Virus record (IMG/VR): IMGVR_UViG_2802429253_000011
Strand: one strand, 5' to 3'
Origin: a virus
Lineage: Duplodnaviria; Heunggongvirae; Uroviricota; Caudoviricetes
DNA: 12,094 nucleotides
Both the position numbers and the translations under genes were made by a program. The notes under the pieces were generated by a model. It saw nothing but the letters and a program-made list of their open reading frames with translations. It did not search any database and was not told where the DNA came from. Shown piece after piece: positions 809 through 6,173 of the stretch; position 1 is the stretch's first letter; each line of letters starts with the position of its first letter.

Positions 809-884
809 GGCCCCTTAGCTCAGTGGTTAGAGCAGGCGACTCATAATCGCTTGGTCGTTGGTTCAAACCCAACAGGGGCCACCA
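809..884 (+). tRNA. ileX: tRNA-Ile2 (anticodon CAU, lysidine-type; ileX/ileY class), 76 nt including encoded CCA
   Basis: Cloverleaf readable by eye: acceptor GGCCCCT/AGGGGCC, D-arm GCTC-AGTGGTTAG-GAGC, anticodon loop CTCATAA (CAT at 842-844), T-arm GTTGG-TTCAAAC-CCAAC, 3' ACCA. Overall sequence resembles E. coli ileX rather than Met/fMet tRNAs. The position next to mug matches the K-12 ileX locus as recalled. Confidence 0.85.
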
Positions 885-1425: not shown

Positions 1426-1713
1426 TTACCGCCGCAGCCGTTCCGGCTTCTTCCACTGGTAAGTATTTTTCGCGCTCTCCCTCCGTTGTTGAGAACGGCG
1501 ACGGTATGCCAGCAACTCAAGAACTCTGGTTCGTATGTTGCGCATATCCACGCCGTTAAGCTCAATACCGTCACGGCGCATCACCTCAGCCACCACACGC
1601 GCGTAATTTTCAGCGGTGACTGTATCCGGCTGCGCGGCCTGTTCGTCAGCCAACTGGCTGATTCCACCAGCACAGCGGATTAATCGCAGTATTTCAGATT
1701 CGGTCATTATCAT
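1426..1713 (-). CDS. Hypothetical 95-aa protein, translationally coupled to the TerS-like gene
   Basis: Its ATG (1711-1713) overlaps the TGA stop (1710-1712) of the upstream gene in an ATGA arrangement. No family recognised. The basic C-terminal tail may be read-through of non-coding DNA, so it could be a 5' fragment. Confidence 0.4.
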   Translation of the reverse strand: MIMTESEILRLIRCAGGISQLADEQAAQPDTVTAENYARVVAEVMRRDGIELNGVDMRNIRTRVLELLAYRRRSQQRRESAKNTYQWKKPERLRR

Positions 1714-2195
1714 GCCTGTTTTGCGACCTCATTCACTACGTCATTTTTTACCATCCGGCTGATAATCTGATTACACAAATCGTCAATAATTGACTGCACT
1801 CTGTTTACTGCCATCGGTTTAAGCCCGGCATCACGTGCCAGAATATTGGGGAGTTTTGCCAGTTCCTCGCTTACGATTTCCCCCCATATAGCCATCTCTT
1901 TTCGCACATCATCGGCGGGTATGAGTTGCGCCGTTTCCTGTTCGAACCTGAGGCGCTCACGTTCGGACTGATACCAGGCCTTACGGTCATGTGGCTCCAT
2001 TTCTTCCAGTGATGCCGGAACGGGAAGATCAAGAAAACAGGTCAGAATGTCAGTCACCCGATAGAGTTTCAGCTTGTCATGCCCTCCGGCTGGCTGGATG
2101 TTTTTCAACCTTGCCGCCGCAGTCTGACGACATATTCCCGCTATCGCCGCCAGTTGATTAATGTTCAGCATCAGATTTTTCAGTTCTCGATCCAT
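1710..2195 (-). CDS. Terminase small subunit-like protein (lambda Nu1-type N-terminal HTH), about 161 aa
   Basis: N-terminal LNINQLAAIAGICRQTAAARLKNIQPAGGHDKLKLYRVTDIL parallels the lambda Nu1 DNA-binding motif (KKQLADIFGASIRTIQNWQEQGMPV...EVLYDSAAVIKWY). Start chosen at the internal ATG 2193-2195 with GGAG 5 nt upstream; the track ORF runs to 2282 without an RBS. Confidence 0.55.
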   Translation of the reverse strand: MDRELKNLMLNINQLAAIAGICRQTAAARLKNIQPAGGHDKLKLYRVTDILTCFLDLPVPASLEEMEPHDRKAWYQSERERLRFEQETAQLIPADDVRKEMAIWGEIVSEELAKLPNILARDAGLKPMAVNRVQSIIDDLCNQIISRMVKNDVVNEVAKQA

Positions 2196-2348
2196 ACCCG
2201 CTCCAGAATGTTTTAAACATGCATCTTGCGAACAACTTTCAGAAGAGGTCAAAAAATGCGCTATATGTTGAGCATAAAACAAGCAAAATTAACATACTAA
2301 AAATAAAAATACTTAAAATTCAATATCATATAAAGATGATGATGACGA

Positions 2349-2421
2349 ATGAAAATGCAAAAACTAGCCTTTTTCCGCGCCGCTCCCGCCCCGTGGCAGG
2401 CCACCTCACCGGGAGGACCCA
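2349..2421. repeat. Copy A of a 73-bp direct repeat (partner at 5699-5771)
   Basis: 69 of 73 positions identical to copy B, no indels, same orientation. GC-rich core with dyad CTCCCG...CGGGAG. Lies between a terminator and the TerS-like operon. Confidence 0.8.
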
Positions 2422-2466
2422 CCCAAAAAAGGCGACTGTCACTATTGTTTATGCTCCATGAGCGAC

Positions 2467-2488
2467 AAAACCGCCCGCAGGCGGTTTT
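2467..2488 (-). terminator. Intrinsic terminator (bidirectional) after the gpI-like gene
   Basis: Perfect hairpin AAAACCGCC-CGCA-GGCGGTTTT, 18 bp beyond the gpI-like stop (2506-2508), T-runs on both sides. Confidence 0.6.
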
Positions 2489-2505
2489 ACATAAAACGTT
2501 TTGTA

Positions 2506-3177
2506 TCAGCGACCAATCACCACAATCTGGCCGCCATCCCCTTCGTCTGCCGTGCTGATCTCCTGAGAGACCACCCGCGACCCCACGCGCATTTCACCGT
2601 ACAGAACGGGCAGAACATTGCCCTGGGCAACCATGTTATCCAGTGAGGAGAAATAGGTGTTCTGTTTGCCGTTATCTGTACTTGCTGCCGTGGGCGTCCT
2701 GGCTTTCGGTGCCAGCATCTGCGCCACACCACCAAGTACCATACTGGCACCGAGAGAAAACAGGATACCGGTCATACCACCGGCCCCAATGGCTGCCCCC
2801 CATGCTGTAAGGGTGGCTCCGGCGGTAAAGAATGATCCGGCAATGGCGGCTGCTCCCAGGACAATCTGGAATACACCACCTGACTTGGCCCCGGCGACTC
2901 TGGGAACAATATGAATCACAGCGCCATCAGGCAGAGTCTCATGTAACTGCGCCGTTAATCCGGACGTGCTGACATCCTGCCCGGCAATCCGTACCTGATA
3001 CCAGCCGTCGCTCAGTTTCTGACGAAACGCCGGGAGCTGTGTGGCCAGCGCCCGGATGGCTTCGGCCCCCGTTTTCACACGCAGATCGATGCGGCGGCCA
3101 AATCGTTGTAAATCCCCGTAAAGGCAGATGCGTGCCATGCCTGGTGACGCCAGAGGGAGTGTGTGCGTCGCTGCCAT
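2506..3177 (-). CDS. Lambda tail-tip assembly protein I (gpI) homolog, 223 aa
   Basis: Translation MAATHTLPLASPGMARICLYGDLQRFGRRIDLRVKTGAEAIRALATQLPAFRQ... with a Gly/Ala-rich hydrophobic C-terminal half matches lambda gpI as recalled, nearly identical over the full length. ATG at 3175-3177, TGA at 2506-2508. Confidence 0.7.
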   Translation of the reverse strand: MAATHTLPLASPGMARICLYGDLQRFGRRIDLRVKTGAEAIRALATQLPAFRQKLSDGWYQVRIAGQDVSTSGLTAQLHETLPDGAVIHIVPRVAGAKSGGVFQIVLGAAAIAGSFFTAGATLTAWGAAIGAGGMTGILFSLGASMVLGGVAQMLAPKARTPTAASTDNGKQNTYFSSLDNMVAQGNVLPVLYGEMRVGSRVVSQEISTADEGDGGQIVVIGR

Positions 3178-3266
3178 TTGTCGGTATACCTCTCTCGTTT
3201 GCTCAGTTGTTCAGGAATATGGTGCGGCAGCTCGCCGCCCCACGTGTTCAAAGTACCGCCTTGTTG

Positions 3267-5180
3267 TCATGCTCCATTCGATTTCAGCAATCCACGATAA
3301 TCGAGGGCCGCGACACCTGCATCTATGCGCACCTTCCAGGCGACACCATCAACAGTAAAGCCCACCTGCTCCTCAAGATATGGCGTATCCATACCATCAA
3401 GATAAGCGACTTCTATTGTGTCCATCCCCTTAGCTGCGGCTACATACCATTCCTTGCTATTGGCCTTATCAAGACGTGGCTCAACAATTACTTCTGCCAT
3501 ATCTTTCACCACGTTAATGATGCCGGGGTTCTGATTGATAGTGCCCTCATCACCAACCGGAAAGACTGATGACGATGACAGAATGGCGCGACGCGCGGCA
3601 GATTCCAGCGCGGCAGGGACCAGAACAAAAGCAGGGGTAATATTCAGTGAGTCGCCGTTAGCATCCTCCTGGAGGCGCATCAGCTTACGGGCTTCATCAA
3701 GCCCCACCATGTCCATATCCTTCGCAATAAGATTTTTATGATCGGCATGGAATAACGCTTTACCATCCGTAAACTTGCCGTTGCTGGTTAACAGGAGATA
3801 AACCAGATTGCCAACTGTTCTGGCGGCTGCGCGTCCCATCGCCATGGGGATTGTAGTTAACTGGGTCAGGTCATCGTTGATAATGGCCTGACGGGTAACG
3901 GAAAAAATATTCCCGTACGTGGCCAGCGCAATAGGTACACCTTTATCGCTGGTGGTGATGTATTTATATTCCGCACCTTCCGGTACTTTATCCAGCTTTG
4001 AAAAACCATTCAGACCAACGCGCTTTGCTTCATGAAAGTTTGAAAGCGAACCGGTACGCGTCCATTTCTGGAACGTTTCGCCGCTGTCCTGCCAGCCTTT
4101 CAGTACAGATTTTTCAGCCCCACCAGCCAGAATATGAGAAAAATCACTGCTGCTGTGTGTAAAAGCCGCATTAACAACCTGCGAGCGATTAATAAAACCA
4201 CTCACAGTGATACCACGATCAACCAGTGATGCCTGGGCCATTTCAAAAAGGCTCATCATCGCGTAAGGGTTGCCTCGTTCAGGGCGTTCATACCCAAGAC
4301 GGGAATAAAGCCCCTGACGAATTGCATCACCTGTTATGTTTCCGTTTCCGGCATAGATATGAGGCGGGGTATTTTTATTGGATGGCGTGGACTCGCGCCC
4401 CAGCTCGTTCAACAGCTTTTCACGGGCCATTTCCGGTGTACATGATGCATCTTCCAGACACGCCATTTTGATCCCGTCGTAACGACTGCCGAACAGGCTA
4501 AACACTTCACTTATTCCATTGATGCGTTTCTGTTCATTACCAGCAATATTTGCCGCTCCCTGTGGCGGTGTAATCATTCCTTTAATGGTTTCCGGCATAT
4601 GTAAAAAATCTCCTGTACGTTTCGATTCAATTCGCGCCATTGCTCTGACGGATGGCAACAATTCATCAGCAAAACCGTGCTTAAGGCATTCTTTCCCATC
4701 CATCCAGGTTTCATCCTCCAGCATGGCGGTAATTTCCTGTGCTGATTTGCCCGTTTTTCTGGCATAAGCAGGGATTAACACGGTTTCCACCTTATCCAGC
4801 AAATCAGCATAATCACGCATATCGCCAGCATTTCCGCCAGAGATCCCCCACGGTTTATGGATCATCATCATGGCGTTCTCCGGCATCACTACACGATCGC
4901 CAGCCATTGCGACCACCGAAGCCATTGAAGCCGCAACACCATCGATATAAACCGTAATGTCTGCCGGATGATTCCGTAGCAGGTTATAGATGGCGATGCC
5001 TTCAAACACATCACCACCTGGTGAATGGATCCTCAGATTGATATGTGAAACATCGCCAAGGGCTTTCAGGTCTTCCGCGAACTGCTTTGCAGTAACACCG
5101 AAGCCGCCAATCTCCTCATAGATAGATATATCCGCCGCTCCGCGAACATCCGCCGCCTTAATGGTGTACCAGCGATTCAT
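3267..5180 (-). CDS. Fusion of prohead protease (ClpP/S14-like) and HK97-fold major capsid protein, 637 aa
   Basis: N-terminus carries ClpP-like motifs (INLRIHSPGGDVFEGIAIYNLL, DGVAASMASVVAMAGD, MMMIHKPWG); the C-terminal ~400 aa has the composition and length of an HK97-family capsid protein. Start ATG 5178-5180 overlaps the upstream stop (TAATG). Confidence 0.8.
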   Translation of the reverse strand: MNRWYTIKAADVRGAADISIYEEIGGFGVTAKQFAEDLKALGDVSHINLRIHSPGGDVFEGIAIYNLLRNHPADITVYIDGVAASMASVVAMAGDRVVMPENAMMMIHKPWGISGGNAGDMRDYADLLDKVETVLIPAYARKTGKSAQEITAMLEDETWMDGKECLKHGFADELLPSVRAMARIESKRTGDFLHMPETIKGMITPPQGAANIAGNEQKRINGISEVFSLFGSRYDGIKMACLEDASCTPEMAREKLLNELGRESTPSNKNTPPHIYAGNGNITGDAIRQGLYSRLGYERPERGNPYAMMSLFEMAQASLVDRGITVSGFINRSQVVNAAFTHSSSDFSHILAGGAEKSVLKGWQDSGETFQKWTRTGSLSNFHEAKRVGLNGFSKLDKVPEGAEYKYITTSDKGVPIALATYGNIFSVTRQAIINDDLTQLTTIPMAMGRAAARTVGNLVYLLLTSNGKFTDGKALFHADHKNLIAKDMDMVGLDEARKLMRLQEDANGDSLNITPAFVLVPAALESAARRAILSSSSVFPVGDEGTINQNPGIINVVKDMAEVIVEPRLDKANSKEWYVAAAKGMDTIEVAYLDGMDTPYLEEQVGFTVDGVAWKVRIDAGVAALDYRGLLKSNGA

Positions 5181-5386
5181 TATTCCCCCACCGATGCAAA
5201 ACCATTCTGATTAAGCCAGGTGTTTACGGCATGTCTGACAATCTGCGCCACACCTGGTAATGGTTTGTCAGGATGATGATTTATATGGTCGATCCTGTAC
5301 TGCTTAAGGCGCATAACGGTCTGCGCATCCAGATGAACGGAACCACCCCTGATATCGCCCGTGTTCAGGTCATTAATACAACTCAC
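5180..5386 (-). CDS. Hypothetical 68-aa protein, first gene of the capsid operon
   Basis: GTG start at 5384-5386 preceded by a strong RBS (AAGAGGAAG); stop overlaps the capsid start. Function unknown. Confidence 0.5.
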   Translation of the reverse strand: MSCINDLNTGDIRGGSVHLDAQTVMRLKQYRIDHINHHPDKPLPGVAQIVRHAVNTWLNQNGFASVGE

Positions 5387-5487
5387 AGTAACTTCCTCTT
5401 ACTGACTAAACTGTGCACATTATTGATCGATAAAAGTGGTAGATAAACATATTTCTATCATAAAAACAGATTAATGAGATTCAGACA

Positions 5488-5511
5488 CAAAAAAGCCGGA
5501 GAAAATCCGGC
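5488..5511 (-). terminator. Intrinsic terminator or attenuator in the leader upstream of the 68-aa gene
   Basis: On the minus strand GCCGGA-UUUUC-UCCGGC followed by six U (plus-strand stem 5495-5511, A-run 5489-5494). Confidence 0.5.
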
Positions 5512-5698
5512 ATAAATATCCCGCCATCTGAACACGTTTTGACACAGGCAACTCCACCTGGCAGGTGAAAAACAGATTTATTTATATATTTCAATTAATT
5601 GCAAACTGGTCTAATGACAGGGAGAAAAAAATATTGTACAGGTGAAAACAGAAATAACTTTTAATTATCAATAAATTATCACACATGCTGCCGCCGCC

Positions 5699-5771
5699 AT
5701 GAAAATGCAAAAACCAGCCTTTTTCCGCGCCGCTCCCGCCCCGTGGCAGGTCACTACACCGGGAGGACCCA
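5699..5771. repeat. Copy B of the 73-bp direct repeat (partner at 2349-2421)
   Basis: Differs from copy A only at 5715, 5751, 5755 and 5756. Abuts the terminator at 5772-5795. Confidence 0.8.
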
Positions 5772-5795
5772 TAAAAAAGCCGGATTGCTCCGGCT
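5772..5795 (-). terminator. Intrinsic terminator ending the primase/origin transcription unit
   Basis: Stem AGCCGGA (5778-5784) / TCCGGCT (5789-5795), loop TTGC; on the minus strand it is followed by six U (complement of A5773-A5778). Confidence 0.6.
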
Positions 5796-5931
5796 TCTGT
5801 CACTCGTTGCTTAAAACGGTATGTTATCCCCGTACGGATCATCATTCCCCGCCTGTTGTTTTGGTGTGCTTCGCTGTCATAGGCTTTATCTCACAGCAGT
5901 AAATTAAAATTTTTGCGTTTTAACCCTTCAC

Positions 5932-6154
5932 CTGTTCACCTTTTGATATTTTCTCTTTTAATTCATAATGTTAAGGGGTGAACAGTTTCACAAAAACTAT
6001 TCACCAACTGTTCACCACTGTTCACCCTTGAAGCTCAATAAACAATCAAAAAGGTGAACAGTGAATAGTTTGGTGAACAGTTCATAAATAACTGTTCACC
6101 CTATAATATACTGATATAAAAGATATTTATGACAGGGTGAACAGTGGTGAACAG
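5932..6154. repeat. Iteron array, candidate replication origin (P4 ori/crr-like)
   Basis: Eleven copies of CTGTTCACC or its complement GGTGAACAG (two of them variants, CTATTCACC and GTGAATAG) at 5932, 5977, 5997, 6008, 6018, 6053, 6061, 6072, 6092, 6136 and 6146, in both orientations, interleaved with AT-rich tracts (5941-5974, 6101-6134). Ends 20 bp from the primase stop. TGTTCACC is the type I iteron bound by P4 alpha protein. Confidence 0.75.
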
Positions 6155-6173
6155 TTATTCCATAAGTTTAATT

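Follow-up and report, generated by a model that had tools for sequence, protein, structure and literature searches.

The 12,094-nt stretch of DNA analysed here (IMG/VR virus record IMGVR_UViG_2802429253_000011, referred to in full as the window) is an EcCICFT073-like Gram-negative phage-inducible chromosomal island (PICI) of ~11 kb, inserted at tRNA ileX, in which two copies of a 73-bp direct repeat lie on either side of a capsid module. Judged by their alignment with phage genome ends, both copies are very probably the cosQ-cosN-I2 cores of lambdoid cohesive-end (cos) packaging sites, which are recognised by TerL. An initial annotation of the window had described the repeat as a shared, non-coding, cis-acting DNA element in the packaging and morphogenesis part of a satellite. 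The cos identity bears this out, while its preferred function, a late promoter or an antitermination or processing site, gives way to the packaging core.

The repeat itself is real. In a repeat search, the top family of the window comprised positions 2349-2428 and 5699-5778, an ungapped pair of 80 nt with 91% identity and a spacing of 3,350 bp; the runners-up were 24-29 nt long with 66-79% identity. Positions 2349-2421 and 5699-5771 matched at 69 of 73 nucleotides, compared with at most 39-41 for any ungapped direct pair of that length when the mononucleotides of the window were shuffled, five times over. The pair first noted (69/73, no indels, 3,350 bp apart) was thus confirmed by both the search and the shuffles. 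All real genes of the window lie on the - strand, and the repeat is hence read on that strand. The translations starting with MKMQK that had been given for both copies are + strand open reading frames (ORFs), that is, mechanical products of the non-coding strand, although the accompanying view that conservation acts at the DNA level stands. An 8-mer shared upstream of both copies, CTGTCACT, may be what is left of a common terminator flank or a chance match.

The identification as cos cores comes from the ends of phage records. A search of a phage collection showed that the records of phages cdtI and Tritos, the latter a linear record, start inside the repeat match. Both end in ...CCTGCCACG and start with GGGCGGGAGCG..., and this junction corresponds to the exact middle of both window copies. 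We then aligned the joined record ends of cdtI, Tritos and lambda beside the two copies, and the cdtI and Tritos ends (...CCACG / G...) proved collinear with those of lambda (...GGTTACG / GGGCGGCGACCT). In this alignment the strings on either side of the junction are ...GGGTCCTTTCCGGTGATCCGACAGGTTACG / GGGCGGCGACCTCGCGGGTTTTCGC... for lambda, ...GGGTCCTTCCGGTGGGGTGGCCTGCCACG / GGGCGGGAGCGTCGCGGAAAAAGGC... for cdtI and ...GGGTCCTCCCGGTGAGGTGGCCTGCCACG / GGGCGGGAGCGGCGCGGAAAAAGGC... for window copy A. Homology among all compared phages sets in precisely with GGGTCCT, a match to the lambda cosQ heptamer, and this point is also where the repeat has its 5' border. The distance from this heptamer to the nick is 29 nt in both window copies versus 30 nt before the lambda right end. 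The repeat is accordingly laid out as cosQ, cosN and an I2-like spacer of ~31 nt, and the phages share their sequence from cosQ to ~43 nt past the nick before dividing into cosB classes. cosQ acts in the termination of packaging (PMC9026076, PMC6739421). The 22 bp around the presumed nicks are self-complementary at 12 of 22 positions, against 10 of 22 in lambda, and the length of the cohesive end is presumed, on the model of lambda, to be 12 nt. A third phage assembly, mEp460_4F5 (ends of record LR595868.1; loci L144/L145), breaks 5 nt away, its record starting that far upstream of the cdtI/Tritos start and being 3 nt short within the presumed overhang; both deviations probably arose when the cos ends were assembled.

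The repeat ends after 73 nt because only the TerL-facing core is common to both copies, and what follows differs between them. Downstream of copy B, the cosB region together with the terS stump (5540-5698) is identical to cdtI and Tritos at 147-148 of 157 positions (94%); phage homology stops after the stump, and no TerS ORF follows it among the ORFs of the window. By contrast, the 153 nt after copy A (cosB-A) are 82% identical, with indels, to the mEp460 cosB and 76% to that of a UTI89 prophage, and only 62-64% identical to the cosB of cdtI and Tritos or to that of copy B. This island variant is also present in the related loci L027, L032, L047 and L092. Past the core, the cosB classes read GGCGGCGGCAGCATG...TTTTCACCTG... 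in cdtI and Tritos, TCGTCATCACCAC... in mEp460 and CGGCCACCATCAT... in the UTI89 and O157 prophages.

To relate these classes to their terminases, we took 120 IMG/VR loci carrying the exact 20-mer core and compared the cosB class with the N-terminal type of the downstream TerS. Across ~110 loci, the cosB class tracked the N-terminal, DNA-binding type of TerS. Indeed, the cdtI-type cosB was followed by a cdtI-type TerS in all 29 loci that have a TerS, the UTI89-type cosB by a UTI89-type TerS in 13 loci, and the mEp460-type cosB by an mEp460-type TerS in 62 loci, by the island TerS in five and by a UTI89-type TerS in one. The five identifiable cdtI-type cos sites that have no TerS all lie in PICI-like contexts. 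The TerS proteins of cdtI and mEp460 have the C-terminal two-thirds in common and differ in their N-terminal domains. This co-variation indicates that the shared 73 nt face TerL and that the divergent part faces TerS.

The gene directly downstream of cosB-A encodes a DUF1441 protein that is 65-67% identical to the TerS of mEp460 and of the UTI89 prophage. Its winged-helix N-terminus is similar to theirs, and its C-terminus is divergent, with KNDVVNEVAKQA instead of the acidic phage tail ADDEEELQQEE. We considered whether this protein might be an Rpp, since it occupies the corresponding slot, and rejected this: phmmer against PDB gave no RppC match and BLASTP no similarity to RppA, whereas RppA of CFT073, the positive control, matched RppC (6HLK) with an E-value of 5e-31. 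Rpp is not universal among PICIs, so that its absence leaves PICI membership possible. A literature search for DUF1441 returned nothing on PICIs.

The distribution of the repeat agrees with a packaging function. BLASTN of copy A with its flanks against 5,426 complete E. coli genomes gave 4,091 places in 2,532 genomes, an abundance that might suggest a dispersed chromosomal intergenic repeat of the repetitive extragenic palindromic (REP) or enterobacterial repetitive intergenic consensus (ERIC) type, unrelated to phage biology. However, the median was one copy per genome and the maximum eight, and every context inspected was either a prophage cos position or a PICI. In a collection with one genome per species, the exact 20-mer core was found in Escherichia (E. 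coli and E. ruysiae) and otherwise in scattered unrelated taxa, which we take to be chance matches; an exact pattern of this kind says little about how far the core extends into other Enterobacteriaceae. We therefore give the dispersed-repeat explanation virtually no credence. The same search speaks against the suggestion that the 73-mer might be satellite-specific, as lambdoid prophages carry it far more often than satellites do, always just upstream of terS-terL. In the prophages of UTI89 and O157:H7 it lies between the lysis genes and DUF1441 terS-terL, and among the 120 IMG/VR loci TerL is encoded nearby in 97, with TerS and TerL starting just downstream at 95 sites. As for the islands, the PICI-type context of terminator and cos-B was present at ≥80% coverage in 162 complete genomes, and the island-type cosB-A with the TerS homologue at ≥90% identity in ~194. 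Among the best 60 cos-B matches, 57 genomes had at least two places, which is consistent with both copies being kept.

What had suggested a transcriptional role was the position of the copies: on the coding strand both follow terminators and precede genes, and some promoter must exist downstream of those terminators. The repeat was accordingly proposed to co-induce both operons as an activator-dependent late promoter, an HK022 put-like antitermination element or an RNA processing site. The layout held in part. Copy B is indeed abutted by an intrinsic terminator, homologous to the one abutting cos1 of EcCICFT073, while the terminator of copy A stands 44 nt away and the sequence directly abutting this copy is a degenerate hairpin remnant of -1.4 kcal/mol. 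Likewise, copy A directly precedes the next operon, with 153 bp to the DUF1441 gene, but copy B does so only loosely, as ~310 bp, including a terminator-like hairpin (5495-5511), separate it from the 68-aa ORF. Because of this hairpin and its T-run (5485-5511 together), the promoter of the 68-aa/capsid operon must lie in 5387-5485. In addition, a consensus scan found no sigma-70-like promoter in or beside either copy, and an Rfam scan at a permissive E-value returned tRNA and chance matches only, with no family at the repeat. When each copy was folded as a single sequence, neither strand gave a better energy than its shuffled controls (z of -1.0, -1.2, +0.3 and -0.4). Moreover, most occurrences of the element are in complete lambdoid prophages, at the site of cos to which the ends of phage genomes map, and the element is bordered by cosQ on one side and by the onset of the divergent cosB on the other. 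Taken together, these observations make co-induction of the two operons by the repeat very improbable. The terminator-repeat layout is nevertheless real and recurs in PICIs, including at cos1 of CFT073, because cos sits at a boundary between transcription units and not because it drives them.

A different objection concerns copy B, which could be a non-functional relic: only cos-A would work, and copy B would be an inert scar of cdtI-type phage DNA captured together with the capsid module, the repeat marking the borders of that module. This is close to the fallback offered in the initial annotation, the boundaries of a swappable capsid module, which finds some support among the relatives of the island. 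After copy B comes a terS stump, beyond which phage homology breaks, and locus L032, which is collinear with the window and 98% identical in nucleotide sequence over the primase region, has a single cos and lacks everything between the two copies, capsid module included. Its cos is a hybrid, with the left flank and the B-type single-nucleotide polymorphisms (SNPs) of copy B before the nick, and an A-type SNP and cosB-A after it. PICI lineages moreover share left flanks joined to different right sides, as in cos1 of CFT073 and in L034 and L053, two loci of another PICI lineage in which the same PICI left flank is joined to a phage mEp460-type right side. In EcCICFT073, cos1 is needed for transfer of the island, whereas cos2 is dispensable and its deletion even raises transfer (PMC6092414). 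On the other hand, copy B has kept an intact cosQ, cosN and entire cosB, its core matching copy A at 69/73 and its cosB being 94% identical to live phages; the terminator-cos-B configuration recurs in the 162 genomes mentioned above, nearly all of the best-matching genomes have two or more places, and plasmids into which either of the EcCICFT073 sites had been cloned were transferred (PMC6092414, PMC6739421). We thus regard an inert copy B as unlikely. The state of L032 is what one would expect of homologous recombination between direct repeats, or of packaging from cos-A to cos-B followed by closure of the cohesive ends, but it could also be ancestral.

Other points also weigh against the reading of both copies as packaging cores. 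The termini are deduced from how database records begin and end; the searchable literature yielded no experimental work with either the island or a cos of this type, and a search for the cohesive-end sequence GGGCGGGAGCG returned irrelevant matches only. Furthermore, the closest genome carries two copies belonging to the island and no resident prophage with this cos, and no helper is assigned to that host.

If both copies are packaging cores, the island would replicate as concatemers after induction, and the helper terminase, positioned by TerS bound to the cosB downstream of the core, would nick cosN and package toward the - strand 3' side, ending at a later cosQ and cosN once the head is full. 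The direction of packaging and the head-full termination are extrapolated from lambda biology (PMC9026076) and from unit-length arithmetic, four units of ~11.0 kb amounting to 44 kb versus phage genomes of 44.5-47 kb. We infer that both sites are cut in this island.

Given the co-variation of cosB class with TerS type, it is possible, although we would not call it probable, that the two sites confer dual specificity, with cos-B used directly by cdtI-type helpers and cos-A by mEp460/UTI89-type helpers via the island TerS homologue. In such a device, cos-B would mimic the cos of cdtI and Tritos and be usable without any island protein, while cos-A would carry a private cosB read via the island TerS homologue, which might take the place of TerS or be its Rpp-like partner and so hijack mEp460/UTI89-type helpers in a manner analogous to Rpp. 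The relatives L027, L047, L084 and L091 lie inside prophage TerL genes, broken near aa 332-349 of 699, and the cos/TerS of their host prophages is mEp460-type (L027) or cdtI-type (L084, L091). This embedding in both prophage classes fits, but does not prove, that both act as helpers of the island family. As a corollary, direct sites with identical cohesive ends would allow packaging from cos-A to cos-B, or joining of ends across molecules, to delete or swap the module between them. The cos would then be a natural junction for module exchange between satellite and helper, with the hybrid cos sites of L032, L034 and L053 as footprints.

The identification turns an apparently regulatory repeat into a recognised functional element, namely packaging sites stolen from helper phages, and it corrects how an island family common in E. 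coli is annotated; ~160-190 of the 5,426 complete genomes have island-type cos contexts. It is also of modest comparative value, since the same TerL-facing core is combined with the cosB of two helper classes and with a TerS homologue where EcCICFT073 has Rpp. This offers a concrete way into two questions, what makes PICIs retain a pair of cos sites and how they follow the packaging specificity of their helpers. The coordinates of the cos sites and of the neighbouring features are collected in Table 1.

Table 1. Features of the two cos sites and their surroundings in the window (positions from the first letter of the 12,094-nt stretch).
Feature	Position	Strand	Basis
cosB-A, island-specific variant of the mEp460-type TerS-binding region	2196..2348	-	Sequence identity; TerS binding predicted
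cos-A core (cosQ, cosN, I2-like spacer), repeat copy A	2349..2421	-	69/73 to copy B; aligns with joined ends of cdtI, Tritos and lambda
cosN-A, presumed 12-nt cohesive end GGGCGGGAGCGG	2380..2391	-	Top-strand nick 2392/2391; homologous to cdtI/Tritos record ends
cosQ-A heptamer GGGTCCT	2414..2420	-	29 nt 5' of nick; identical to lambda heptamer
cosB-B, cdtI/Tritos-type TerS-binding region, TTTTCACCTG present twice	5558..5698	-	Sequence identity; binding predicted
cos-B core (cosQ, cosN, I2-like spacer), repeat copy B	5699..5771	-	69/73 to copy A; aligns with joined ends of cdtI, Tritos and lambda
cosN-B, presumed cohesive end GGGCGGGAGCGG	5730..5741	-	Nick 5742/5741; homology to phage ends, dyad symmetry
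cosQ-B heptamer GGGTCCT	5764..5770	-	29 nt 5' of nick; identical to lambda heptamer
terS stump, cdtI-type: start codon region and ~6 codons	5536..5557	-	Alignment to cdtI 185-204; phage homology stops after
DUF1441 TerS homologue, 161 aa, in the Rpp slot of EcCICFT073	1710..2195	-	Pfam DUF1441, E 1.8e-35
Intrinsic terminator following gpI, 44 nt 5' of cosQ-A	2465..2490	-	Hairpin -15.7 kcal/mol, then TTTTGT
Segment between both cos sites: 68-aa ORF, capsid fusion (637 aa), gpK fragment, gpI	2506..5386	-	ORFs, domain matches
Terminator-like hairpin between terS stump/cos-B and 68-aa/capsid operon	5485..5511	-	GCCGGATTTTCTCCGGC, then T-run
Intrinsic terminator abutting cosQ-B, end of replication module	5773..5798	-	Hairpin -15.4 kcal/mol and T6

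The features by which PICIs are recognised were all found in the window: an int gene, an alpA-type regulator, a primase with an adjacent iteron origin (ori), unidirectional genes, site-specific insertion and a size within 10-20 kb. In the direction of transcription, which runs from right to left on the + strand, the genes are a tyrosine integrase, a 241-aa ORF, an HTH_17 AlpA-like regulator, an Icd-like gene, small genes including DUF4222, the primase, the iterons, copy B, the 68-aa ORF, a 637-aa fusion of ClpP protease and major capsid protein, a gpK fragment, gpI, copy A, the 161-aa DUF1441 protein and a 95-aa ORF, followed by tRNA ileX and mug. In the closest complete genome the island unit measures 11,016 bp and is bounded by a 46-nt att repeat of the tRNA ileX 3' end. 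The iterons (5930-6170, just downstream of the primase gene) comprise at least 10 copies of GGTGAACAG(T) in both orientations, and this field is expected to be an iteron-type PICI replication origin.

The module between the two cos sites has a mixed history. We rejected the possibility that it is a recent phage remnant, since the capsid-fusion gene is just ~66% identical in nucleotide sequence to its phage counterparts; the module is therefore an old island paralogue and not a fresh prophage fragment, even though cosB-B is 94% phage-like. The loci L092 and L027 lack the part corresponding to window positions 2441-3255 (gpK fragment, gpI and terminator), and in them the capsid gene is followed by a terminator abutting cosQ-A, of whose hairpin the window keeps only the degenerate remnant. 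Positions 2441-3255 are a recent insertion of tail-gene debris (gpI being Lambda_tail_I) into the island.

Several further observations concern the island family. One complete E. coli assembly lists as a plasmid a circle of 10,790 bp (L146; NZ_CP148328.1, 1-10790) that carries both cos copies and the gene set of the window island, with int, HTH, Icd-like gene, DUF4222, primase, capsid fusion, gpK fragment, gpI, DUF1441 and the 93-aa gene; it looks like an excised or autonomously replicating PICI and not a plasmid. In an IMG/VR contig whose primase is 100% identical in amino acid sequence to that of the window (L127, 4698-13279), the capsid-fusion gene is interrupted after ~128 aa by a second satellite-like element with an int-like gene, a primase (59%), a 68-aa ORF (73%) and a capsid gene (79%), which makes it a satellite within a satellite. 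The last island gene (window 1426-1713, 95 aa; L013 18373-18654, 93 aa in EcCICFT073) is kept across PICIs that differ in cos type and specificity gene, and it matched no Pfam family. Finally, the T-arm of tRNA ileX reads GTTGGTTCAAACCCAAC in the window (809-884) versus GCTGGTTCAAGTCCAGC in the closest genome (L001, 3652-3727), which points to differing island att sequences as the source of the 3' part of the tRNA.

Among known systems, the closest is EcCICFT073 (Fillol-Salom et al. 2018, PMC6092414; 2019, PMC6739421), which has two cos sites whose cosQ and cosN resemble those of the helper and whose cosB regions do not (PMC6092414, PMC6739421). RppA, by binding the helper TerS, diverts it to the cosB of cos1; the same study left open the reason for a second cos site in some PICIs (PMC6739421). 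As reviewed by Murialdo and Feiss (2022, PMC9026076), the cos-rpp layout mirrors the cos-terS layout of phages, and termination requires cosQ and cosN only. We located both sites in CFT073, cos1 directly upstream of rppA, where the deletion primers in the supplement of the publication confirmed its identity, and cos2 inverted, between rppA and the 93-aa gene. The window shares with EcCICFT073 the order int, alpA, DUF4222, primase, ori, 68-aa ORF, capsid homologue, cos, specificity gene and p93/p95 homologue, a winged helix-turn-helix packaging-specificity gene beside cos, and two cos sites with differing cosB; in addition, the terminator-cosQ junction of its cos1 (...GGCCGGAGAAATCCGGCTTTTTTTAT / GGGTCCT) is homologous to that of copy B. 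The two islands differ in cosN, which is GGGCGGGAGCGG in the window and the lambda-type GGGCGGCGACCT in EcCICFT073, and in arrangement, as the sites of EcCICFT073 are inverted and flank rppA, whereas those of the window are direct, flank the capsid module and lie 3,350 bp apart. Moreover, the specificity gene of the window is a diverged DUF1441 TerS homologue and not Rpp, and one of its sites carries a bona fide phage cosB, none being recognisable in EcCICFT073.

Lambda cos resembles the window sites in its GGGTCCT, in the nick after ...ACG and before GGGCGG, in a partial cosN dyad, in an A/T-rich I2-like spacer and in the location of cosB between cosN and terS. It differs from them by the one-nucleotide longer distance from cosQ to the nick, by 5 of the 12 cohesive-end bases, by an unrelated cosB and by its Nu1 in place of a DUF1441-type TerS. 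The phages cdtI, Tritos and mEp460 and the UTI89 and O157 prophages have the same cosQ-cosN core as the window, with the cosB of copy B being of the cdtI/Tritos type and that of copy A of the mEp460 class. In these phages, however, cos is followed by a full terS-terL, while in the island copy B leads to a terS stump and copy A to a diverged terS homologue, with no terL. A cos-like segment common to satellite and helper has also been described for helper-embedded satellites (bioRxiv 10.1101/2022.07.18.500453), to which L027, L047, L084 and L091, in the TerL genes of prophages with this cos type, are alike; the window island differs in lying at tRNA ileX and not inside a prophage. Paired cos sites are thus already known in such islands, and the window is a fresh example of them and not a new regulatory element.

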